In this document: positions 6,183-30,119 of the stretch, piece after piece | Numbering within the stretch: the stretch's first letter is position 1 | Layout: each line of letters opens with the position of its first letter | Assembly (NCBI GenBank): GCA_017468205.1 | Contig: JAFUJK010000083.1 | Coordinates: 1-60,596, forward strand | DNA: 60,596 bases | Origin: Clostridia bacterium | GTDB lineage: Bacteria; Bacillota; Clostridia; Christensenellales; UBA1242 | Direction of reading: 5' to 3' | Made by a program: the position numbers and the translations under genes | Notes under the pieces: model-generated | What the model was told of the DNA's origin: nothing | The model's database searches: none | What the model saw: only the letters and a program-made list of their open reading frames with translations

Positions 6183-7171
6183 TATTCTTCAATACCTTCT
6201 ACTTCGTTATTTTTTAATTCTTCTGCCATTTTAACAATTTTTCTTAATCTATGATTAACTCCGCTTTTTGTAAGTGGTGGCGACATAAGTTTAGCGAGAT
6301 TTTCGAGGGTTTCATTGGGGTTTGCAAGGCGCAACACGCACAAATCATAGAGAGTATCAGGCAAATTCTCCAAGCCCATTTTCTCCTCTAAATATTCGAT
6401 TGCGGAAATTTGTTTAAGGCTAGCATCAACCATTTTTCCCAAATTGCTATTCATACAATTAAGTTGGCGATTGAGTTGATTTCGCACTTCGCGCACAGCG
6501 AACTCGTTTTGCAATGTAAGCACAGCATTATTAGCACCAACGAGAGCAAGGACATCGCTCACAATTTCCGCTTCTTTTATGTAAACAACTGTCAATTTTT
6601 TGCGTTGCATTATCTTGCTGTAAATATCGTATTGCGACAAAATATGAGAAAAATCTCCCGCCATATTACGATTTAGAAACGCAAATTCGAGATGATAGCC
6701 ACCTGTATGTTTTTTAAGGTCGTTGATGTCCTTAATCACGATATTTGCACTAGCGCAACCCATAAAAACACCCTTAATAAACTGGCGCTGACAGCAATCA
6801 TTTTCAATTAGATGCCTTGAAATACTGCTGGCTATTTCGAGTTGTCCTGCATAATTTTCGCGCAAAATATAGCAATCTTTTAAAATCTGCTCACTTAGGT
6901 CTTGCGGAAAAATAACACTAAATTTTATAGCATGATTAGGGCGTTCCTGTCTATCTAATTTCAATCTATTTTCTTGGTTATAAAGCATTTTTACAAGACC
7001 GCAAACGCGCTTATAGAGAATATCAAGTTCAGTTACAAGAGTGATTGAAAAATCTTCGGCAATACGTCCGCAAGTACGAACAATACCTCCTAGTTCAGCG
7101 CGCGCGCAACATTCTTGCGTTGGCAACTCGCTTGTTGCTACTTCTGTTTTTGCTTCGTATGAAAATGACAT
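6182..7171 (-). CDS. whiA: DNA-binding protein WhiA
   Basis: MSFSYEAKTE start, GYHLEF, NRQLNCMNSNL, LTKSGVNHRLRKI. Confidence 0.93.
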   Translation of the reverse strand: MSFSYEAKTEVATSELPTQECCARAELGGIVRTCGRIAEDFSITLVTELDILYKRVCGLVKMLYNQENRLKLDRQERPNHAIKFSVIFPQDLSEQILKDCYILRENYAGQLEIASSISRHLIENDCCQRQFIKGVFMGCASANIVIKDINDLKKHTGGYHLEFAFLNRNMAGDFSHILSQYDIYSKIMQRKKLTVVYIKEAEIVSDVLALVGANNAVLTLQNEFAVREVRNQLNRQLNCMNSNLGKMVDASLKQISAIEYLEEKMGLENLPDTLYDLCVLRLANPNETLENLAKLMSPPLTKSGVNHRLRKIVKMAEELKNNEVEGIEE

Positions 7172-7222: not shown

Positions 7223-7954
7223 CTATTTCACTATTTTTATATTAACAATTTTTTCAAGAGGCAAATCATACTTTTCTATGAACTCTTGTTGCAAGGACAT
7301 ATCCCCTACATTTTGTGAATGATGCGCATCGCTACTTAACACCAAGTCGACACCACTTTGTTTAATTGCCTCGACTTCTTCCGCGTTGAAATCAATTCTT
7401 TTGCCATTCAATTCAAACCAAACGCCCTTTTCAGCACAAGCGCGTGCAAGCCTGCCGACATCGCAAGCGGTGGCATAGTTTGGATGCACTACAATTTTTA
7501 CTGGATATTTTTCGAGTGCTTTTAGATAACTATCTGTAATTTTTTGTTTGTGCTTTACAGTATCCCACAACAAATTACGAGCATTAAACAAAAAACTGCC
7601 TCTTACTTTTTTGCCAAAAGTAAATTTATGCACGCCAAAAATTATGTAATCAAGCGAATCAATATCGCTTTGTTGAATATCCAACTCGCCGTCATAATTA
7701 AGAAGATTTGCTTCAATTCCTAACAGAATTTTAATATTGGGGTACTTGGCTTGCACACGTTCAATTTCTGCACGCAATTTAGGAATATCACTACGTTTAA
7801 TCCCCCCCATACAATGGTTAAAACCGTGGTCAGTAATACCTATAACTTCGAGCCCCTTACTAACCGCTTCTCTTACATTATCCTCCACACTATCGTGCCC
7901 ATCACTATAAAAAGTGTGTGTATGATAGTCTGCTGTAACTTTAAAATTTTTCAC
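7223..7954 (-). CDS. PHP-domain phosphoesterase (histidinol-phosphatase family)
   Basis: DYHTHTFYSDG, ITDHG, GIEAN, SSDAH motifs. Confidence 0.88.
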   Translation of the reverse strand: MKNFKVTADYHTHTFYSDGHDSVEDNVREAVSKGLEVIGITDHGFNHCMGGIKRSDIPKLRAEIERVQAKYPNIKILLGIEANLLNYDGELDIQQSDIDSLDYIIFGVHKFTFGKKVRGSFLFNARNLLWDTVKHKQKITDSYLKALEKYPVKIVVHPNYATACDVGRLARACAEKGVWFELNGKRIDFNAEEVEAIKQSGVDLVLSSDAHHSQNVGDMSLQQEFIEKYDLPLEKIVNIKIVK

Positions 7955-19821: not shown

Positions 19822-20616
19822 ATGCGCGTATGTGTACTAGCCAGTGGCAGTAAAGGAAACTGCACATTTGTTGAAGGCGAAAACACCCGCATTTTAATAG
19901 ATGCGGGATTAAATAAAACAGAAATCGAAAATAGATTAAATACTATCGGCATTGAACCTAGTAGCATTGATAGTATACTCATTACCCACGAACATAGCGA
20001 CCACATCAAGGGCGTTGGTGCATTTGCGCGTGCACACAAATGCAAAATATTCGCCCACCCCGACACTTGGGGGGCAATGCAAGAAAAAGTTGGAACTATT
20101 CAAGCAGAAAAACGTGTTGGAATATTTGGAAGTAATTTTTACATAAATGAACTAGCTATCACAAGTTTTGACCTTTCTCACGACTCGGCGCATTGCCTTG
20201 GTTTTAGTGTTCACGAAGGCAACAAAAAAATCAGCACTGCAACAGACCTAGGTTTCATAAACGATACAATAATCAAACATTTAGCGGATAGTAGCCTCGT
20301 GATTTTGGAATCAAACCACGACATACCCCGTCTAATGAGCAACCCAAAATATCCACTTTACCTAAAACAGCGCATACTTTCAAATCGCGGACACCTTAAC
20401 AACAAAGATTCAGCCGAAGCAGTTCTAAAAATGCTGGGATATGGAATTCGCGGGTTAATTGCTGCACATTTGAGCGAAGAAAACAACACTCCTGACCTTG
20501 TTATGAAAGCACTCAATGATATTGTAGCACGTCAAGGTGGCGAACTTGCAAAAGAAATTTATGTTGACATTGCAAAGCAACACAAAGTTGGAAATATTTA
20601 TAGAATAAAATCATAA
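19822..20616 (+). CDS. MBL-fold metallo-hydrolase (YycJ/WalJ-like)
   Basis: LASGSKGN, THEHSDH, ESNHD, HLSEENN. Confidence 0.9.
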   Translation: MRVCVLASGSKGNCTFVEGENTRILIDAGLNKTEIENRLNTIGIEPSSIDSILITHEHSDHIKGVGAFARAHKCKIFAHPDTWGAMQEKVGTIQAEKRVGIFGSNFYINELAITSFDLSHDSAHCLGFSVHEGNKKISTATDLGFINDTIIKHLADSSLVILESNHDIPRLMSNPKYPLYLKQRILSNRGHLNNKDSAEAVLKMLGYGIRGLIAAHLSEENNTPDLVMKALNDIVARQGGELAKEIYVDIAKQHKVGNIYRIKS

Positions 20617-20711
20617 ACGCACAAAGGTGTATTTTTATTTTTTTAACAAATAATGTATATTTTTATTCCTTACACACAAATTATTTATAGAAAATTTGAG
20701 GAGTACAAAAT

Positions 20712-21131
20712 ATGGCAACCAAAAAATCAACAAATACTAAAACAAAGGCATCTACCGCTAAATCAAGCACAGCAAAAGCCGAAACAAAAACAAAAGAACC
20801 TCTTGTAAGTACGAAACGCAAAGTAGGCATAGCAATTTACTTTACTTTCATTATCACACTTGCCTTATCCTTTGGCGCACAAGTTTGGATGATGGAAACA
20901 TTCAATCCACCTGCAACAAACGAACCCAATTTAGCCAGCAACGAGCAAACACAATCGCCTAACACCACACAAGAAAGTCCACAAGTTCAAAATGATGAAA
21001 GCAACATTGAGCGCGCTTTGCTTGAAAATGAGCAACAAGAAGAGTTTATTGTTCCTGCTCCAAATCAATTTAATTTCTACGACCAAAATGAAAATTTAAT
21101 TGCACAACAAAATGCGCCTCAATCAGAATAA
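20712..21131 (+). CDS. Hypothetical single-pass membrane protein
   Basis: GAGGAG RBS; Lys/Thr-rich N-terminus, TM helix, Gln/Glu/Asn-rich tail. Confidence 0.7.
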   Translation: MATKKSTNTKTKASTAKSSTAKAETKTKEPLVSTKRKVGIAIYFTFIITLALSFGAQVWMMETFNPPATNEPNLASNEQTQSPNTTQESPQVQNDESNIERALLENEQQEEFIVPAPNQFNFYDQNENLIAQQNAPQSE

Positions 21132-21135
21132 AAGA

Positions 21136-21167
21136 AAAACATATTAGCCTTAACTAATATGTTTTTT
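21136..21167. terminator. Bidirectional terminator
   Basis: aaaaacatattag-ccttaa-ctaatatgttttt. Confidence 0.75.
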
Positions 21168-21170
21168 ATT

Positions 21171-24161
21171 TTATGAATTTTGTACTAATGTTGGATATTG
21201 GTCTTGAACAAAGTTCCAATATTTAGAGTCAAATCCACGGTTAGTAAATGTTGACATCTTCTTACAATTTTCGTCACTAGTCCAACCATCGTCCGGTGAA
21301 GCCCAGTCGATAACGAAGTTATATGAACTTGTCAAACGTGTTCCGCCGTGCTTTGAGTTTACGATACATTTCTCAACCACACCCGCAACCTTGTTGTCTT
21401 CACCAAAGATTGCAGTAAATGGGTTGTGTACTGAATATACTTCACTCTTTGTTTCAGCATAAGCCTTGCTTCCTGAAATTGAATAGTCAAATTCAGAGTT
21501 AGCAAAACAGTATGCAACGCGACCATATCTGTCTTTGTTTTGAATTTCAATATCAACGGCAAATCCAGCCATAACTTTACCAGCAAGTGTACATTCTGCG
21601 TAGCAGTTTACGATAGAACCAGCCACAATCACACTTGCAAGCCCACCTACCTTTTCACCGCCAATAAAACCAGTTGCGTATGAGGTTGAAACCAAATTCT
21701 CAGAGCCCTCGCCCTCTAACCAGCCAACCAAACCACCAGCATAATAACCGCTGATTTCCATTGAGGTTGCGCTACAATCAGAAATCAAAGTGCCATCTCC
21801 ACTGTAACCAGTAATACCACCAACATATGATTTATCACCTGTACTTACTGAAGCATTTATCTTACCAGTAAAATTACATTTTGATATTGAACCATCGGAA
21901 CTTACACCTACAATACCGCCAGCAGTTGCATCAGTATCACTTTGCGCAAAAATTTCATAAGCATACTTGCCATCGCTTGTAAGTCCACCATCATAATTAG
22001 AATTTACAATCTTAGAATTACCGCCCAATTCACCAACAATTCCACCAACAAAGTTGGTTTCCTTTGATTGAACTTTAATATTCAACGATGCAGTACAATC
22101 TTGAATCAATGCATCTTTTCCTGTTTTACCAGCGATACCACCAGCATAGATGCGATTATCTGCGTTAATGTTAATACCCTCAAAGTTTGTGTCTGCATTT
22201 GAACGCACTACACAATCAATGATTTTACCATAGTTCAATCCAGCAATAGCACCTACCCAAGCATAAACATCATCACTAGCAACCTTTGTTATTTTAACGC
22301 CCTCAATAATTAGGTTTTCTGCAACGCCTTCGCTACCAATCATACCAAAGAAACCATTAAATCTATTTTCAGTGGTGATTACTAGGTTGCGAATTACAGG
22401 CATAGAGCCGTCAGCTTTTGCTACTCCATACATTTGACCATTAAATGGTGTAAGGGAATCGCCGATTGGAGTCCATTCCTCACCAGTCAAATCAATGTCG
22501 CTGTCGATTTTGTACTTATTGTTGTAAATACCATCGTCAGCAAGGTCAGCAGCAAGTTCGTCAAGCAATTTTTGTTTTCCAGAAATAACAACCACGTCAA
22601 ATTCGTCATAAATTCCGTTGTTTACTGGAACAGCATTGTCTTTAATAAATGGATAACCATTGTTAACTGAAGGGTCGATAGACCAAAGATTATCAAAGTC
22701 CCATGTTACCATTTCGCCGTTCACATCATAACCAATGTAAGCAACATTTTCGCTAGGCATATTTGCTTCTTTTACTGCGCTAAATTGCTCTGCATTTGGT
22801 TTTTTCTTCAATGTTTCAGCAGTAACGCCATAAGCAAGATATGCAGTTGTAACGTCATCAAAATCATAAATACCAGTTGTTACTTTTTCGCTCTTTTGAT
22901 AGAAGTTACCCAAAATACGGTTGTAATTCTTGTATGCTTCGTCTGGTTTAAGCTCTGGCTGAACAGAATTCAATCCATTCAAGTTAAAAGCAATCAAGCC
23001 AGCCACAAAATCTTCGCCTTTCATCTCGTTTTTAATAACTGCATAACAATTAATAACCGCACTCTTTTGCGAATCGTTTGTTTCAGCTGTCATATTAACT
23101 AAACTTGCAGTAATTCCACCAGCAATACTTGATTTTGAAGCTTCTGGTGTCGCAAATGTAGCATCTACAACACCACAATTACTAATCATACCAGCCCTAA
23201 CTACAGAAGAGATACCACCCATACACGCAGTTGTATTAGCTGATAAAATTAAGTTAGAAACGGTTGTATAAAGCACTTTCGCAAGATATGCTCCGCTTGT
23301 GCCATCAAGAATACCAACAACACCACCAATATAAGCAGCTTTTTCAATTGTAGCATTTGCATTAACTACAGAATTTGAAACAGTAACAAAACTTACTTCA
23401 CCCATGTTATATGCAGCAAGTGGCGCAACATTATCATAATTTCCATCAAGTTTAAATCCAGTAAGATTCAAGTTTGAAACTTTTGCACCAGTTTTGATTG
23501 TACCAAAAAGTCCAGCATTTTTCAAAGTACTAGGTGCAACAACTTCGCCCTCGCTCAACATAGCAGAACCTTCTTGTAACAAATGAAGGTTACTAATAGT
23601 GTGCTTACCACCATTGTAAGTACCACTAAAACCATCGTCGCCACCGATTGGAGTCCACGCAGTTTGCTTCTCAACACTCATATCAATATCAGCAACTTGT
23701 TGATAGTTAGCGGTCAATGGGTGCGCTGGACCGATTGATTTCAAGTCTTGATAGTCGCGAATATAGAATGGGTTTTCAGTAGACCCAGAACCAACGTAAA
23801 CTGCAACATTTACGTTCTTGTAATCCTCGTTTGTGGTAACGAGTTGAATTGTTGTATTACCGCCAGCAAGAGCCTCAAATCTCCAAGATTCAACGTTCTT
23901 GTCGTCAGCAAACTTTTCTTTAAATTTAACAATTTCCTCATTCATACTAACAAGGCTGTACTGGTCAGCAGAAGGATTCTCACGAGTTACAGTTACTACA
24001 AAAGTTTCGCCTACGTTGACATATTTAGTAGTAGATTGACCATTTTCGCCCCCCAAGCTAAACACTTCGTTGTTGAGCATAAAGTAGTAAACAGACAACC
24101 CGACACTAATGCCGACAATTACGATAAGCAAAAAGATTAAAAATCTATTGAGCCATTTCAT
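21171..24161 (-). CDS. Large surface protein with GLUG-type beta-helix repeats (two tandem modules)
   Basis: N-terminal TM anchor; GSGSTENPFYI; repeated DID..WTPIG..F.G, V/AGGIVG motifs; two W.F..W..YP module ends. Confidence 0.8.
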   Translation of the reverse strand: MKWLNRFLIFLLIVIVGISVGLSVYYFMLNNEVFSLGGENGQSTTKYVNVGETFVVTVTRENPSADQYSLVSMNEEIVKFKEKFADDKNVESWRFEALAGGNTTIQLVTTNEDYKNVNVAVYVGSGSTENPFYIRDYQDLKSIGPAHPLTANYQQVADIDMSVEKQTAWTPIGGDDGFSGTYNGGKHTISNLHLLQEGSAMLSEGEVVAPSTLKNAGLFGTIKTGAKVSNLNLTGFKLDGNYDNVAPLAAYNMGEVSFVTVSNSVVNANATIEKAAYIGGVVGILDGTSGAYLAKVLYTTVSNLILSANTTACMGGISSVVRAGMISNCGVVDATFATPEASKSSIAGGITASLVNMTAETNDSQKSAVINCYAVIKNEMKGEDFVAGLIAFNLNGLNSVQPELKPDEAYKNYNRILGNFYQKSEKVTTGIYDFDDVTTAYLAYGVTAETLKKKPNAEQFSAVKEANMPSENVAYIGYDVNGEMVTWDFDNLWSIDPSVNNGYPFIKDNAVPVNNGIYDEFDVVVISGKQKLLDELAADLADDGIYNNKYKIDSDIDLTGEEWTPIGDSLTPFNGQMYGVAKADGSMPVIRNLVITTENRFNGFFGMIGSEGVAENLIIEGVKITKVASDDVYAWVGAIAGLNYGKIIDCVVRSNADTNFEGININADNRIYAGGIAGKTGKDALIQDCTASLNIKVQSKETNFVGGIVGELGGNSKIVNSNYDGGLTSDGKYAYEIFAQSDTDATAGGIVGVSSDGSISKCNFTGKINASVSTGDKSYVGGITGYSGDGTLISDCSATSMEISGYYAGGLVGWLEGEGSENLVSTSYATGFIGGEKVGGLASVIVAGSIVNCYAECTLAGKVMAGFAVDIEIQNKDRYGRVAYCFANSEFDYSISGSKAYAETKSEVYSVHNPFTAIFGEDNKVAGVVEKCIVNSKHGGTRLTSSYNFVIDWASPDDGWTSDENCKKMSTFTNRGFDSKYWNFVQDQYPTLVQNS

Positions 24162-24332
24162 AAGTAATTACCTCTCTATTTATTCTTCTAGTAATTCATT
24201 ATATTATACCATACTTTAAATCATTTGTCAATATTGATATAAAATAAAAACAAAAACTATTAATTTTTCTAGTTTTTGCTTAAATTCTTTATTATTATGA
24301 TTATTATATGATAACAAGTATCTTTATTTACT

Positions 24333-24426
24333 GAGATTTCTCGACCGCGCTTGTAATGACAGCCCCCGTGTCATTATGAGGAGCGCAACGACGCGATAAT
24401 CTCGGCGACAAAGTCGCCACCACGGA
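24333..24426. repeat. Inverted pair of REP-like GAGAT...AATGAC repeats plus small hairpin
   Basis: 24333-24360 gagatttctc..taatgac; 24370-24403 gtcattatg..aatctc; then ggcgac-aaa-gtcgcc. Confidence 0.7.
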
Positions 24427-24435
24427 GAAAATATT

Positions 24436-26374
24436 TTACGTCAACTTATCCGTATTATTTGTTTCAGTATTTACATTTGAACTTATTTGTGAAAAATTGG
24501 CAATTATAAGTTTTCCAAATGCTTGCTCTTTGGTTAGCTGCATGCTCAAACTTGTTCCGAACGAATTTCCATCGCTATCCGTCCAGCCGTCAAATTGATA
24601 ACCCGCGTATGCAACCGCAATGCACGTAATCGTGTCGCTTTCCTCACTTAAATCCGAGCCTGTTATTCTGGCTTCCCCGCCATTGGTGGCTTGAATGGCG
24701 ACGCCCTCAATACTTGTGCCCGCGCTATTTTTTAAAACTGGCTTTGTATTAATAAAAGTAAGATAAATACCAAAATCCGCACTGATGTAATCAATTTGAA
24801 GAACAAGCATATTGCCATTTTCATTGATTTTGTACTCAATGCTAGCCGAACTTCCCGAATTTTCAAGCAATCCCGTTCGCGTTTCAAAAACTTGCGTTTC
24901 TCCACTTGCAACCGAAATTGCGCTGAAATAATATCCGCTTGGCGCGGTCAAATAGTATGTAAGTGTGTAGTTTTGGTCGCGTGAGAAGTCGCTAGTAAAA
25001 GTTTGCGAGCCTGTGATAGTTGCAGTAAAATACTTTATGAAATATGCAGTATAAGTCTGCGCACTGCTCGCAGTTATCGTCAGAGGATTGCTCTCATATG
25101 TTCCCCCTCCGCTGTCCTGCCAGTATGCAAATATACTACCATTTATTGGATTGGCTGTTAATGAAACTAATGTGCCACTTTCATATGTTCCCCCTCCGCT
25201 TACTGAACCATAAGAAGAATTAGAAGTGTTTGCTGTGATTAATACTCCAGTTTTGAAATACGCCTTGCAAGTGATAGTCCCTGTTACCGCAAAAGAATAT
25301 GGGTTACTTTCCACACGAGTTGAGCCAATCATCCAGTAGTCAAATAGATATCCTGCATTTGGCGTTGCTATAATTGTTGTGATGGTGTTATATTTTATCG
25401 CCCCACCGCCACTTGTCGTACCATATGAGGAGTTGTTTGTTGAAAGCGTTACATTAAATTCAACACAACTAGCTAGACTATTCAATGAAATGTGAGCGGC
25501 AGGACGCACACCGCGACTAAAGAAAGTACTGCTGCGGGAAACGGAGCCAGAGGAGGATATTAGTAACGCGACGTCGTAGTCGCCAGATTCGCCAGAACGC
25601 AGCCAACAATAGTCTGTAGACATTTCCCTATCTGTGTCATCTAGCCCCCAAAAAGAGAAAGTTTCATAATAACTTGGAAGCCAGAATTTATCTGTAACTG
25701 TTGATAATACACCTAAACTACTAATATAGTCATCAGTGTATTGCGTATCTTGTGCTGTCTTATAGCTACTACTCATACTACATGGCGAAACGGTGATTGA
25801 GTTAAGTACTGGATAACTGCTCGCGCGAGTTGTGAAATAATTTTGCACTGTCGTGCGTATATCTGAACTACTATAGTCATTGTTTGAACTAGCAAATGTG
25901 GCAGTTGTGTAGTAATCACACATCCACACGGTAATAATGTCTGTGTTGTTTGGGTCGCGATACACCACTTGCCAAGCGCGACCAGCCATTGTAAAAACTA
26001 TCGGAGTTCCGCCGTCCAAAGTTCTCACTGTTCCAGTTTTCGAGCCCAATTTGCTAATTAAGGAATTATATACTGTTTCATTTACTATACTGCTTCCACT
26101 AGTGGATAATGTTCCAAGTGATGTGTAACTTTTTAATGCCGAAACGCCGTTTAAATCATTTAAAATCAAAAAAATGCTTCCGCCTGTTATAGCGATAAAA
26201 AGAAGGATTAAGGACAGAATTAGGGCAATCACTTTGCCTCTTTTTTCTTTATTTTTAGGGTTGTTTAAATTGTCTGAAAAGCCTTTATTTAAGCCATTTT
26301 CAGCAATTTTTTCGCTATTTAGCGCCCCCCCCCCCCTGCGGAGTTTTTGGGGTGGATAAGTGGTCTTTTTTCAT
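24436..26374 (-). CDS. Surface protein: TM anchor, DUF6273-like domain with putative DGR variable region, InlB-B-like repeats; 5' end frameshifted at a G12 tract
   Basis: GGAGG-N8-ATG at 26374; that frame stops after the G12 tract, main 598-aa ORF is 26232-24436; repeats ATPNAGYLFDYW, ANPINGSIFAYW, AYAGYQFDGW. Confidence 0.75.
25498..25605 (-). other. Putative DGR variable region
   Basis: WLRSG-26 codons-GVRPA; 21 of 26 codons end in C/T (14 in C), none encodes Asn, as expected for randomised AAY codons. Confidence 0.65.
26325..26336 (-). repeat. G12 homopolymer (candidate phase-variation tract)
   Basis: 12 C on the plus strand, inside the 5' coding region; G11 or G14 joins ATG 26374 to the main ORF. 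Confidence 0.75.
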
Positions 26375-26403
26375 TGTTTGTGCCTCCATTTTTTCCTTAC
26401 TTG

Positions 26404-26454
26404 CGGTGATAAATCACCGAGATTGCCACGGCTTTTGCAAAGCCTTGCAATAAC
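26404..26454. repeat. REP-like GAGAT...AATAAC repeat with adjacent hairpin in the 5' UTR
   Basis: cggtgat-aa-atcaccg overlapping gagattgccacggcttttgcaaagccttgcaataac; lies between TGnTATAAT (26477-26485) and the RBS. Confidence 0.65.
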
Positions 26455-26632
26455 AGCAAGGGATTTATTCATTCTTATTATATCACAATTTTTAGTTAAA
26501 TACTAATAAAAAATATAGGAATTTTTAATTTCACGTAAATACGTGCATTTTGATACAAAATTATAAAAAATACACACATTTTTAAACAAAAAAATAAAAA
26601 CCCACCTTAAATTGGGCACTAATTAGAAAAAA

Positions 26633-26725
26633 GGGCGCGGGTGCTTGTGCGCATTGCGCACAGCACGCGAACGCGTGCAAACCCGATTTTTGCAACAAAA
26701 AAAATCGGGTTAAGCACCCGCGCCC
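26633..26725. repeat. Perfect four-way-junction palindrome (14-bp outer stem, three inner hairpins)
   Basis: gggcgcgggtgctt/aagcacccgcgccc enclosing gtgcgca-t-tgcgcac, gcacgcg-aa-cgcgtgc and aacccgattttt-N8-aaaaatcgggtt. Confidence 0.85.
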
Positions 26726-26729
26726 CCAA

Positions 26730-27074
26730 TTACAGACCAAGACTAATTGCAAGGGCATCGTCTATATTTTTTAGTGTCCTTGCATCAGTATATCCAATTT
26801 TATCCAGCAAGCGCGCCTTATCCAATGTGCGAATTTGCTCCAATAATACAACACTATCTTTTTCAAGTCCAAAACAACTTGCGCTTAATTCAATATGTGT
26901 AGGCAATTTGGCCTTATTGATTTTACTTGTTATAGCAGCAACAATAACGGTTGGGCTGTAACGATTGCCGACATCATTTTGCACAATCAAAACGGGGCGC
27001 ACACCGCCCTGCTCACTCCCGACAACAGGCGAGAGATTAGCATAATAAATATCACCACGTTTGATTGTGTCCAA
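26730..27074 (-). CDS. mazF: PemK/MazF (NdoA/EndoA-type) mRNA interferase toxin
   Basis: [42 protein letters not shown]; conserved position downstream of acpS. Confidence 0.93.
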
Positions 27075-27075
27075 C

Positions 27076-27255
27076 TTATTGCTCCTTTATCCAATTTTCG
27101 TAGCGATCCAAATCGCAACCAGCGACACCCCAAATTTCACGTTCAGAAAAGCCAACGAAATCACCAAAATCGTTTTTTTCCATTATATGCGAACTAAAAT
27201 GAGATTTGTGAGAGAGAGCTGATAGTTCTGCTACATATTTTTCAAAGTCTTTCAT
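27076..27255 (-). CDS. Putative minimal MazE/NdoAI-like antitoxin (59 aa, absent from the ORF track)
   Basis: [59 protein letters not shown]; stop 1 nt before the mazF TTG; contains the mazF RBS. Confidence 0.6.
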
Positions 27256-27301
27256 AATAATTTATCCCTTTTAACACTGCAAATATACCTAAAAAACAAA
27301 A

Positions 27302-27327
27302 AATATAGGAAGGTTCTTTCCTATATT
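27302..27327. terminator. Hairpin/terminator downstream of acpS
   Basis: aatataggaa..ttcctatatt inverted repeat, T-run on the minus strand. Confidence 0.55.
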
Positions 27328-27351
27328 CTGTATTTTGTCATAAAATATACA

Positions 27352-27723
27352 TCATTTTGCAATGCAAATTGCAACCGCATTATCATGTGTATGCGAAATG
27401 CTAATATCCATTTCCTTAATTTTCAGGCTTTGAGCAATCTCTTTGGTAACGCCACTAAAAGAAACAACGGGTTTTCCTAATTCGTTAGGCAGTATTTCAA
27501 TTTCCGTCCACTTAACTCCTTTATCAATTCCAGTTCCCAACATTTTTACAACGGCTTCTTTTCCTGCGAACTTTCCCGCAATTCGTTCAGCTCTTGCCTG
27601 TTGATTACTTAATTGTTCGATATGCTCGCGCTCTTTTTTTGTAAAAACACGAGAAAGGAACGCAACATTTTCGCATTTATCAAAAAATCTTGATACTTCC
27701 ACCATATCAATACCAACTTTCAC
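27352..27723 (-). CDS. acpS: Holo-ACP synthase
   Basis: VGIDMVEVSR, KFAGKEAVVK, SISH. Confidence 0.93.
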   Translation of the reverse strand: MKVGIDMVEVSRFFDKCENVAFLSRVFTKKEREHIEQLSNQQARAERIAGKFAGKEAVVKMLGTGIDKGVKWTEIEILPNELGKPVVSFSGVTKEIAQSLKIKEMDISISHTHDNAVAICIAK

Positions 27724-28333
27724 AATCGCCCTCCTTGATTTTCGACATTGCAGAACTTATTTCACTCCAAGAAAATCCTTTCCCAGCCAAATATCTACAC
27801 ATTTTATCTAAATTTTCACGCGTTCGCTCCTTATTTTTCATATATTTTAAAGCAATAGCAAGAACAGCATCTTCCTGACTACCCGCATTTTCTAAAATAT
27901 TGTCAATTATTTCTCTATCTATACCGCGCATTTCAAGATTAAATTTAATTTTGCGCGTGCCATAGCGGGAAATATTGCTATTCACATACATTTCCGCATA
28001 CAATTCATCATTTAAGAACTTATATTCAAGCATTTTATCAATAATCGCACCAATAACACGAGGCAAATAACCTTTATCTTTTAGATATTCTCGCATTTGT
28101 CGCTTTGTTTTTAAATTTTTTGAAACCAATTCAACAGCGCGCTCAAACCCGCTTGAAACCTCACTTTCAAAAGTAATATCTTCCAGTTCTGTTTTTGAAA
28201 TTTCATTGCCGACTTTTAATTTGTTTTTATAAGTTGTGAAAGCATCTAATGTACAAACAAATTCATTATCTATATAAATATGTTGACGTTTATTCTTCCC
28301 TTTTGCCTCTTTTATGTCTGTTATTATCCCCAT
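27707..28333 (-). CDS. recX: RecX family regulator
   Basis: LNDELYAEMYV, GTRKIKFNLEMRGI, RYLAGKGF. Confidence 0.85.
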   Translation of the reverse strand: MGIITDIKEAKGKNKRQHIYIDNEFVCTLDAFTTYKNKLKVGNEISKTELEDITFESEVSSGFERAVELVSKNLKTKRQMREYLKDKGYLPRVIGAIIDKMLEYKFLNDELYAEMYVNSNISRYGTRKIKFNLEMRGIDREIIDNILENAGSQEDAVLAIALKYMKNKERTRENLDKMCRYLAGKGFSWSEISSAMSKIKEGDCESWY

Positions 28334-28923
28334 TACTCGCCCTCATAATATTCAAAAATATCGCCTATAAAAGTTGAGTTTTCTATCAATTCATCACTAC
28401 TAGCGACAACTTTTAAGGTTGCGCCATTATCAAAATTAGTGTCAATAACTTTTATTTTTCGCCCCTTAATATTATTTATAAAAGGCTGATAATCCTTATA
28501 ATCAAGTTCAACCTCATAAATCTTTGAACTCAACCATTCGACAATTTTCGCATTTTCTATTGTATCGACCGCGCTACCAGAATAGGCTCGCAAAAGGCCA
28601 CCTGCACCAAGTTTTACACCTCCAAAATAGCGAACCACTGCAATAACCACATTCACAAGCCCTTTCTTTTCTATTATATTTAGAATAGGCTTTCCTGCTG
28701 TGCCTGACGGCTCGCCATCATCGCTTAAACGTGCCGAATTTCTCAATTTATAGGCAAAACAAATATGTCTTGCATCCTTATATTTCTCGCGCAATTCATT
28801 CAAAAAACTTTCCGCTTCGTCCCCACTCTCAACAAACTTCGCAAAACCCAAAAAGCGAGATTTGTTAATAACAATCTCGCTTGTGTAAATTTCATCTTTT
28901 TTTATAGAAAGAAAACTTTCCAT
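28333..28923 (-). CDS. YigZ/IMPACT family protein
   Basis: KSRF, SDDGEPSGTAG, VVRYFGGVKLGAGGL. Confidence 0.92.
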   Translation of the reverse strand: MESFLSIKKDEIYTSEIVINKSRFLGFAKFVESGDEAESFLNELREKYKDARHICFAYKLRNSARLSDDGEPSGTAGKPILNIIEKKGLVNVVIAVVRYFGGVKLGAGGLLRAYSGSAVDTIENAKIVEWLSSKIYEVELDYKDYQPFINNIKGRKIKVIDTNFDNGATLKVVASSDELIENSTFIGDIFEYYEGE

Positions 28924-30119
28924 TACTGCACGTTCACCTTAACAATATTCTTTTTGCCTTTTTTAAGCACAAAACCATCAGCAGGGCAAGCAAATTCAAG
29001 GTTGTCGACAACTACATCATCAACTTTAACACCGCCACCTAAAACCAATTTCTTTGCATCGCCACGTGAACCAGCAAATTTGAGAGCCACAAGACAATCA
29101 ATAATGTTCAAACTATTCTTATCAAGAGAAACTTCTGGCATATCCGCTTCATTTCCACCGAAAGCACCGCGAGCCTGTTTCAACGCCTCATTTGCACTTT
29201 TCTCACCGCGAACGATTTTTGTAACTTCAAAAGCAAGACGCTCCTTAGCCTTATTGATTTCTTTACCCGTTCCTGAACAAATTTCCTTAATCTCGTCAAG
29301 TGGCAACAAGGTGAGCATTTTGAATACTTCTTCCACCTTGGCATCTTCGATATCGCGGAAGTATTGGAAAAAGTCGTAATCGCTCGTTTTTTCGCGAGAA
29401 AGCCAAACAGCACCACCAGCAGATTTACCCATTTTAGTGCCATCTGTTTTTGTAAGCAAAGGTGAAGTCATACAATAAACAGGCTTATTTTCTTTTTTGC
29501 GAATTAATTCCGCACCTGCCAAAATGTTAGCCCATTGATCGCTTCCACCAAGTTGAACGCTACAATTGTATGTTTTAAACAAGTGGTAAAAATCGTAAGC
29601 CTGCATAGGCATATAGTTAAATTCAAGGAAACTTAATCCATTTTCCATACGTTGTTCAAAGCACCCTGAACTCAACATTTTGTTTACACTCATATTAAGT
29701 CCGACAACATTTAAAAAGTCGACATAACTTAATTTACTTATCCAATCGTCGTTATCTACAACAATTAATTTATTTTCGCAATCAGGGTCAAAGAAAGATT
29801 CAAATTGCTTCTTAATTTTACGAATATTCTTGTCGCGTTGTTCATCTGAAATCATAGGGCGCATATCATTTCTACCCGAAGGGTCTCCAATTTTACCAGT
29901 AGCACCACCAACCAATGCAATTGGTGTGTGTCCTGCCTTTTGCATACGAACCAATTGAAGTATTAAAGCCAAATTCCCCACGTGAAGGCTGTCAGCAGTT
30001 GGGTCAAAACCACAATAGCAAACAACTTTTTCCTTATCTAGTAATTCGCGCAATTCATCAGGGTAAATTGATTGATAAATAAGACCGCGCTCGTTCATTT
30101 CGTCAAATACATTTTTCAT
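28923..30119 (-). CDS. tyrS: Tyrosine--tRNA ligase
   Basis: YCGFDPTADSLHVGN, QLGGSDQW, KMGKS, S4-like C-terminus. Confidence 0.96.
   Translation of the reverse strand: MKNVFDEMNERGLIYQSIYPDELRELLDKEKVVCYCGFDPTADSLHVGNLALILQLVRMQKAGHTPIALVGGATGKIGDPSGRNDMRPMISDEQRDKNIRKIKKQFESFFDPDCENKLIVVDNDDWISKLSYVDFLNVVGLNMSVNKMLSSGCFEQRMENGLSFLEFNYMPMQAYDFYHLFKTYNCSVQLGGSDQWANILAGAELIRKKENKPVYCMTSPLLTKTDGTKMGKSAGGAVWLSREKTSDYDFFQYFRDIEDAKVEEVFKMLTLLPLDEIKEICSGTGKEINKAKERLAFEVTKIVRGEKSANEALKQARGAFGGNEADMPEVSLDKNSLNIIDCLVALKFAGSRGDAKKLVLGGGVKVDDVVVDNLEFACPADGFVLKKGKKNIVKVNVQ

Follow-up and report, generated by a model that had tools for sequence, protein, structure and literature searches.

A 12-G tract in the leader of an adhesin-like gene of an uncultured gut Clostridia bacterium is probably an ON/OFF switch within a large poly-G phasome

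The DNA analysed here is contig C76 (GenBank JAFUJK010000083.1, 60,596 nucleotides, called the window below) of the metagenome assembly of an uncultured gut Clostridia bacterium (GCA_017468205.1; 1,231,789 bases in 92 contigs, 36.4% G+C, 94.6% complete and 1.45% contaminated), and its subject is a homopolymeric tract at the start of a gene for a large surface protein. The tract, whose length is taken from the metagenome assembly, lies at 26325–26336 and was read as C12 on the forward strand and G12 on the coding (reverse) strand when the region 24300–26700 was translated in reverse. A Shine-Dalgarno (SD) sequence, GGAGG (26383–26387), stands 8 nt 5′ of an ATG at 26374, which precedes G12 by 38 nt ending in CA, and the tract spans codons 13–17. 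Directly 3′ of G12 the sequence is CGCTAAATAGCG. As assembled, the frame opened by this ATG (26315–26374) reads MKKDHLSTPKTPQGGGGAK, 19 codons, and then stops at TAG 26317–26315, which is the OFF (+1) state. The stops of both shifted frames, TAA 26321–26319 and TAG 26317–26315, are crowded into 26315–26321, within 8 nt of the tract. The 627-codon body (24436–26322, counted from AAT 26319) is out of frame with the ATG by one base at G12. At G11 or G14 the ATG frame is open as ..QGGGALNSEKIAENGLNKGFSDNLNNPKNKEKRGKVIAL.., giving 18 + 627 = 645 amino acids, and the predicted ON-frame peptide crossing the tract is ..TPQGGGALNSEK.. The original prediction had given the same tract length, coordinates and translations, and all were correct. 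It had also found no second long G/C run in the window, which holds, the one other run of at least 7 there being a C7 at 7802–7808. A run of at least 7 G or C inside a reading frame is counted as putatively phase-variable, and every tract of at least 8 was variable in Campylobacter jejuni NCTC 11168, in the excerpted text of PMC6321876; the G12 at 26325–26336 is such a run, and it lies within a frame opened by an SD-ATG.

The body frame begins with a conserved post-tract leader, LNSEKIAENGLNKGFSDNLNNPKNKEKRGK, followed by a predicted hydrophobic N-terminal membrane anchor (IALILSLILLFIAITGGSIFLIL, 26161–26229), a DUF6273-like ectodomain with conserved W..LRS and GVRPA motifs (25459–26160), and a C-terminal region (24439–25458) with three stretches of divergent InlB B-repeats, the best at about 25039–25236. 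Because this layout consists of a cytoplasmic leader, one hydrophobic anchor and ectodomains, the product was taken to be an adhesin-like surface protein. It matched PF18998 (Flg_new_2, the divergent InlB B-repeat) with 93.4 bits against a cut-off of 23.6, which places it among InlB B-repeat proteins, and PF18998 was also matched by all 16 paralogs tested. DUF6273 (PF19789, gathering score 23.5 bits) was matched by 11 of the 16 paralogs, nine of them above the cut-off (23.8–33.8 bits), and gave no match at E≤0.01 in the window copy, for which the nearest Atlas clusters of the ectodomain were nonetheless DUF6273 (0.97). A profile of 16 sequences gave weak matches (best E 9e-4) to poxvirus A33/OPG161 chains, which we take to be C-type-lectin-like. 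The structure model of the ectodomain (mean predicted local distance difference test score 47.9, predicted template-modelling score 0.39) was too poor to use.

The tract is one of many. Over the whole genome, runs of 6, 7 and 8 G or C numbered 62, 10 and 5, and runs of 9, 10, 11, 12, 13 and 15 numbered 3, 3, 9, 14, 2 and 2, making 33 of at least 9. Base composition would give 0.44 runs of at least 9 and 0.0027 of at least 12, and extrapolating the decay of lengths 3–7 gave 0.46 of at least 9. The distribution of run lengths is bimodal with a second peak at 11–12, and the longest A/T runs in the genome are 9. Of these 33 long runs, 27 lie in one and the same leader cassette, and a G8 cut off at the end of contig C16 makes a 28th copy. 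Tract lengths in the cassette range from 8 to 15, with G on the coding strand in every copy. The cassette consists of an SD sequence, an ATG with 12–13 codons (MKKDHLSTPKTPQ, MKSKKLSTLKTPQ, MKKDLISTPKKWQ, MKKCDLSTAQPR and others), the G tract, C(G/A)(C/T)T(T)AAATAGC, and a leader reading LNSEKIAE and then NGLNKGFS.. or KADKNGTFSDLK.. An SD-like motif was present 6–11 nt 5′ of the ATG in all 24 copies whose upstream side is on the contig. A few pre-tract variants and two main post-tract variants are combined differently among the copies. The 60 nt after the tract are the best-conserved DNA among the 13 complete loci, with a median identity of 82% against about 60% in the bodies. Fifteen of the 28 tracts lie no more than 1 kb from a contig end, and some genes are split between contigs: P0068 unites a head on C65 with a body on C20, and P0070 a head at C47:42445 with a body on C33. 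Since some of the 28 copies are thus two halves of one gene, the number of cassette genes is about 22–26.

A tblastn search with the ectodomain found 28 loci in the genome, 15 of them with a tract of at least 8 G within 900 nt upstream; at the ectodomain locus on C20 the tract is farther up than that, and six loci with sufficient upstream DNA have no tract. Three tract-less paralogs that were aligned have short K/R-rich N-termini (MKETAKR.., MSITKK.., MRKKVK..), which align with ..KEQKRGK where the cassette is present, so that the cassette amounts to an N-terminal extension of about 45 residues. In another tract-less paralog (L020, contig C22), ..CCCCAAGATGGGCATTTCGATAGT.. stands in place of the tract, and ATG, leader and anchor are read in one frame as MKKGDLSTTQPQDGHFDSPNDVENGLNKGF..RFYSLIIFITLL.. 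The original prediction had asked whether other paralogs carry 5′ poly-G tracts, and the 28 copies answer this in the affirmative.

Frame could be scored in 22 copies, those with ATG and body both on one contig: 7 were ON, 12 were shifted by +1, the window copy among them, and 3 by −1. State did not follow length, G12 being ON at 2 loci and OFF at 9, and G11 ON at 2 and OFF at 3; the sequence flanking the tract varies by one base from locus to locus. Stops in both shifted frames, starting 2–4 and 6–8 nt after the tract, were found in 25 of 25 cassette copies, as compared with 5.8% of 20,000 random positions within open reading frames (ORFs) at which both frames stop within 12 nt. Because the copies are homologous, the 25 count as one observation; congeners with different flanks also have stops at that place. 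Nine OFF copies keep intact bodies of 406–903 codons, which speaks against the frameshifted copies being pseudogenes of a shrinking genome that broke at the tract. Such decay would suit the small genome (1.23 Mb), an in-frame copy on C32 whose body is cut to 32 codons and an in-frame stop in mutS described below. Yet the tract has the same position in every copy, and other assemblies have identical bodies in frame, so that decay is scarcely credible as an explanation.

Comparison with other assemblies gave clear, though indirect, evidence of a change in tract length at sister loci with identical or almost identical bodies, as judged from the recorded sequences. The gene on C88 has G12 and is OFF here (MKSKKLSTLKTPQGGGGAK-stop). 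In another ENA assembly the 640-residue P0060 reads MKSKKLSTLKTPQGGGALNSEK.. in frame with three Gly, equivalent to G11, and its body is identical to that of the C88 gene at 623 of 623 residues. The gene split between C65 and C20 has G12 here; it is also recorded in frame, as P0068 (712 aa), and from an internal start, as P0066 (677 aa). For the gene on contig C7, which has G11 here, P0063 starts MGGGGHLNSPK.., needing G13. The body on C33 occurs in the in-frame P0070 (827 aa) and in P0071 and P0072, whose internal starts are consistent with an OFF state. Among 10 cassette-gene clusters looked up, four had different states, three were in a single form, and three (C67, C74 and C76, the last being the window gene) were without an informative difference. 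A scan of JGI metagenomes with the cassette pattern of this species gave no match, and a cross-species pattern gave one (L143), which is paralog-like to loci of a metagenome-assembled genome (MAG) from the Hadza gut, with no orthologous pair.

From this evidence we conclude that the G12 tract is very probably a slipped-strand ON/OFF contingency switch, as the original prediction had proposed, and part of a large poly-G phasome; the 28 cassette copies, their mixed frames and the length differences at sister loci support it. In the proposed mechanism, ribosomes would start at the ATG behind GGAGG and translate 13 codons into the tract. With G11 or G14 they would read through into a cytoplasmic leader of about 30 residues, the anchor and the DUF6273 and InlB-B-repeat ectodomains, giving the 645-aa product (ON). 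With G12, as assembled, or with G13 or G10, they would meet TAG or TAA within 8 nt and release a peptide of 17–19 residues (OFF), presumably leaving the cell without the protein. Slipped-strand mispairing in replication would add or remove one G, probably at a high rate, and the state would flip reversibly, at the window locus as at its sisters. With the cassette on about two dozen paralogs, each would switch separately, so that a clonal population would show many combinations of surface proteins.

The same tract could also slip at the level of RNA. Long homopolymers are known slippage sites of RNA polymerase, and nothing in the sequence prevents RNA polymerase or ribosome slippage on 12 G, by which an OFF allele would yield some full-length protein with DNA length setting the level. 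That both shifted frames are closed at once suggests instead that a clean OFF state has been selected for, and the known cases of transcript slippage are mostly on A/T runs. We therefore regard RNA-level slippage as unlikely here, though it is compatible with a DNA switch. Slipped-strand events in transcription and translation are mentioned in the part of PMC3315296 consulted.

Several observations weigh against a DNA switch, above all at the window locus itself. The recorded proteins of the window gene are P0001 (577 aa, TTG start) and P0059 (598 aa, GTG start, three ENA contigs). The gene is out of frame in all four contigs on record, with no variation in tract length there, and its 645-aa form was absent among 58 protein matches. 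Both recorded gene calls start downstream of the tract, so that only OFF is on record for it. The expected variation in tract length across assemblies was seen at the sister loci on C88, C65/C20 and C7 and not at the predicted locus. Logan contigs of X1 and X2 stop at 26301 and resume at 26407, with flanks free of differences, and those of X3 and X11 cover only small parts of the locus; since the public contigs break at the cassette, switching of the window locus itself went unseen. The other public assemblies may not be fully independent of this one. Pairwise differences at leader codon positions 1/2/3 were 0.16/0.27/0.24 after the tract and 0.28/0.24/0.38 before it, which gives no clear sign either way of amino-acid-level constraint on the leader. 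The lineage has genes for MutS1 and MutL. Finally, +1 copies outnumber −1 copies by 12 to 3, a possible hint of a calling bias, and a possible start codon lies between the tract and the anchor.

A calling bias would mean that the true tracts are fixed in frame and that homopolymers were miscounted at low depth. Long G runs are difficult for short reads, the contigs of the public holders have a word depth of only about 7–10, and 12 of the 15 OFF copies are off by exactly +1. A uniform miscount would still leave a mixed set, however, because a given tract length can be ON at one locus and OFF at another. The out-of-frame call for the window gene recurs in three more ENA contigs, the stops in both shifted frames are conserved, and the 33 tracts stand at gene starts or promoters. 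An assembly or sequencing artefact is accordingly highly unlikely to account for the pattern.

The possible start is a GTG at 26230–26232, the first listed start of a 598-aa ORF (24436–26232) and a candidate for tract-independent initiation in this copy only. If the body were translated from it at any tract length, the frame from ATG to tract would be a separate short leader ORF. The GTG has AGAGG upstream with 4 nt between, in this copy alone, P0059 is begun at this codon by one public gene caller, and in a congener (G016) an upstream ORF of its own, about 65 nt before the main start, contains the cassette. Against this, 4 nt is a short spacing, and in the aligned cassette paralogs the codon at this position is Ile. 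At the aligned pre-anchor position the other copies lack a start codon, their first ATG, GTG or TTG being mostly at codon ~55, past the start of the anchor. A product of the GTG (MIALILS..) would also miss the K/R-rich pre-anchor segment shared by in-frame cassette copies and aligned cassette-less paralogs, and in L020 and the seven in-frame copies leader and body are one gene. The original caveat about initiation at 26232 is thereby weakened, although the GTG with its AGAGG does exist, and we think tract-independent translation quite improbable.

Loss of mismatch repair was considered as a cause of the tracts and rejected, MutS_I and MutL domains being present in 39 of the 41 genomes searched, including all 16 congeners. 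To our knowledge, Campylobacter and Helicobacter are without MutS1/MutL. In this genome (G000) only, mutS (C1:39879–42494) has a single in-frame TAA at C1:41670–41672 (..EIKGYNIS*SRHPVVEKL..), which splits its 871 codons into 597 + 273; the open frames of relatives are about 865–930 codons. The adjoining mutL is open (639 aa). The TAA may mark a natural mutator or an assembly base error. If it is real, it would raise slippage rates genome-wide, with about 30 switches flipping faster.

Among the 41 genomes, the exact cassette pattern was found in G000 only. Thirteen of the 16 congeners and 17 of 24 other members of the family had tracts of at least 10 G, which were fewer in the order's larger genomes. 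Two congeners (G006 and G011) have the same layout of SD-ATG, about 10–15 codons, G10–12, CGCT..TAG.. and a membrane anchor, and in G006 the body also has InlB B-repeats; G012 and G013 have the SD-ATG-tract portion of it. With this query the ectodomain family was detected in 8 of the 16 congeners. At the loci examined in G001, G002, G005, G011 and G015 the N-termini are plain and short with no tract of at least 7 G, and in G016 the cassette is in the separate upstream ORF mentioned above. Since the family is mostly without the cassette in congeners, the switch looks like a module added in some lineages. Tentatively, the tract may belong to a portable cassette (SD-ATG, ~13 codons, Gn, both-frame stops and leader) that spreads and recombines among gene 5′ ends, with the mutS-interrupted strain perhaps a natural mutator, a proposal we hold to be rather doubtful.

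A degenerate pattern run over species-representative genomes matched at least 98 stretches. Among the matches listed, many were gut MAGs labelled Clostridia, Christensenella or Christensenellaceae (water deer, sheep, rabbit, Hadza), and Gastranaerophilales MAGs and Helicobacter were there too. In Gastranaerophilales and related gut MAGs (L053, L074, L084, L087, L089, L097, L100), G10–11 stands about 12 codons after an ATG. These tracts head type IV pilin-like genes (..GFTLAEVLVTLGIIG..) and are followed by CG(C/T)TTTTTAGC. A comparable poly-G arrangement at the 5′ end is thus seen in another phylum.

The textbook cases of homopolymer phase variation come from a few pathogens, namely Campylobacter, Neisseria, Haemophilus, Helicobacter and mycoplasmas. 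The mechanism proposed here is that of a classical contingency locus; its importance lies chiefly in pointing to a large poly-G phasome of an uncultured commensal. In tract type and number it is closest to the C. jejuni phasome, and in architecture to the Neisseria opa family. As in C. jejuni, a small, low-G+C, host-associated genome has G/C tracts within reading frames or promoters. The tracts of C. jejuni are mostly 8–11 long, whereas the modal length is 11–12 here, where MutS1/MutL genes are present as well. Like the opa genes, the adhesin paralogs each have the same 5′ coding repeat and would switch independently, giving combinatorial expression. The opa repeat, a pentamer (CTCTT), lies in the cleaved signal peptide of outer-membrane proteins and is not a homopolymer, whereas here the tract is in a cytoplasmic N-terminal extension before an uncleaved-looking anchor, in about twice as many copies. 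The switch of the Vlp proteins of Mycoplasma hyorhinis is a poly-A tract in the promoter, in contrast to the coding leader used here, although a small second class in this genome (C88:52279) has G11 in a promoter spacer. In Helicobacter pylori, a 5′ coding CT repeat sets the frame of outer-membrane adhesin paralogs; these differ in having dinucleotide repeats, in the protein family and in being Gram-negative. The text excerpted from PMC11868660 puts the phase-variable opa genes of one gonococcal strain at 11, describes for Vlp a small genome, many surface paralogs and combinatorial phase variation, features that the present genome would share, and assigns site-specific inversion to other mycoplasma systems. 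For C. jejuni NCTC 11168, an extract of PMC4965091 counts 29 loci with at least 7 G/C, a number similar to the 48 runs of at least 7 and 33 of at least 9 in this genome. The ON/OFF state is likewise set by frame there (PMC6321876, in the same excerpt), but the tracts are in unrelated genes, mostly for surface-glycan modification according to a passage of PMC8437040, whereas here one cassette sits on paralogs.

A literature search at the level of titles and abstracts found no description of homopolymer phase variation for uncultured gut Clostridia. If the switch is real, a 1.2-Mb animal-gut commensal has some two dozen genes of adhesin-like type given over to a stochastic and combinatorial display, which bears on escape from phages or host immunity. 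The cassette also matters for annotation: gene callers truncate or misstart cassette genes (577, 598, 605, 677 and 739 aa against full lengths of 640–827 aa), and assemblies break at the cassettes.

The original prediction had placed the switching on top of a sequence diversification. This stands as far as the paralog family is diverse; a link to diversity-generating retroelements (DGRs) was not found, a quick BLAST of the neighbourhoods of RVT_1 genes against the genome giving no template/variable repeat pair with adenine-specific mismatches that reached the family. DUF6273 does turn up in the literature on DGR targets. The genome has two reverse-transcriptase (RVT_1) genes, at C82:27518–28207 and C67:9759–10388.

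Upstream of the switch gene, a promoter-like extended −10 element (TGTGATATAAT) was predicted by eye at 26477–26487 on the reverse strand. It is absent from the list of the consensus promoter scan, which gave a different, weaker site at 26539–26512. An invertible promoter was rejected, the inverted repeats found being short A/T-rich or terminator-like only, none of them flanking the promoter. The 5′ untranslated leader holds a repeated hairpin-forming element (26395–26470, reverse strand) that is common to sister genes, with about 15 similar places in the genome. A local stem-loop was predicted in it, and the whole segment was not significantly more stable than shuffled sequences (z = −0.73). 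A profile of the upstream half of the cassette matched 27 places in the genome. Another, palindromic repeated element lies just 3′ of the stop codon (24320–24436, reverse strand; about 24 similar places). No Rfam match was found at E≤0.1 across 20000–30000 of the window. Palindromic elements like these two flank genes of the family, and in several paralogs (C20, C62, C33, C7, C28, C39 and C90) they sit in frame within the cytoplasmic leader, where they translate as ..LRDGDFIAEIATAFSKPRNDTEREKAG.. or ..SLRGGHSPTRQSRQLVAATEGERND...

Two neighbours of the switch gene are on the same strand. Just upstream, at 26730–27074, is an ORF for a PemK/MazF-like toxin, as judged by sequence, and a nested G+C-rich perfect inverted repeat with 14-nt arms and a 12-nt-arm hairpin inside occupies 26633–26725. 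The next gene downstream (21171–24161), for another large surface protein, encodes 996 aa with a membrane anchor and a GLUG motif (PF07581, 33.4 bits) and has no poly-G tract.

Six of the long tracts lie outside the cassette and fall into four groups: a pair on contig C13, C88:52279, C47:11774, and one on C8 with one on C49, neither of the last two having a clear context. On C13, G11 (6611–6621) and G9 (7135–7143; L175) stand about 19 codons after the ATG of two small adjoining genes in which the phage baseplate domain Gp10_C was matched (PF21939, 51.9 and 66.7 bits), both out of frame as assembled. Judged by these domains, they are possibly a second family under poly-G control, encoding receptor-binding proteins of a prophage or tailocin. 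The tract at C88:52279–52289 (L174) is a G11 between TTGACA and a TG-extended TATAAT; such spacer-type tracts also occur at L036 (G024) and L037 (G020), and in this class as a whole G11–12 lies between TTGACA and TATAAT or TACAAT with a spacer of about 20–23 nt. The gene behind the C88 tract encodes 272 aa with no Pfam match and is followed by one for a patatin-like phospholipase. The G9 at C47:11774–11782 is inside a post-stop repeated element after a family gene.

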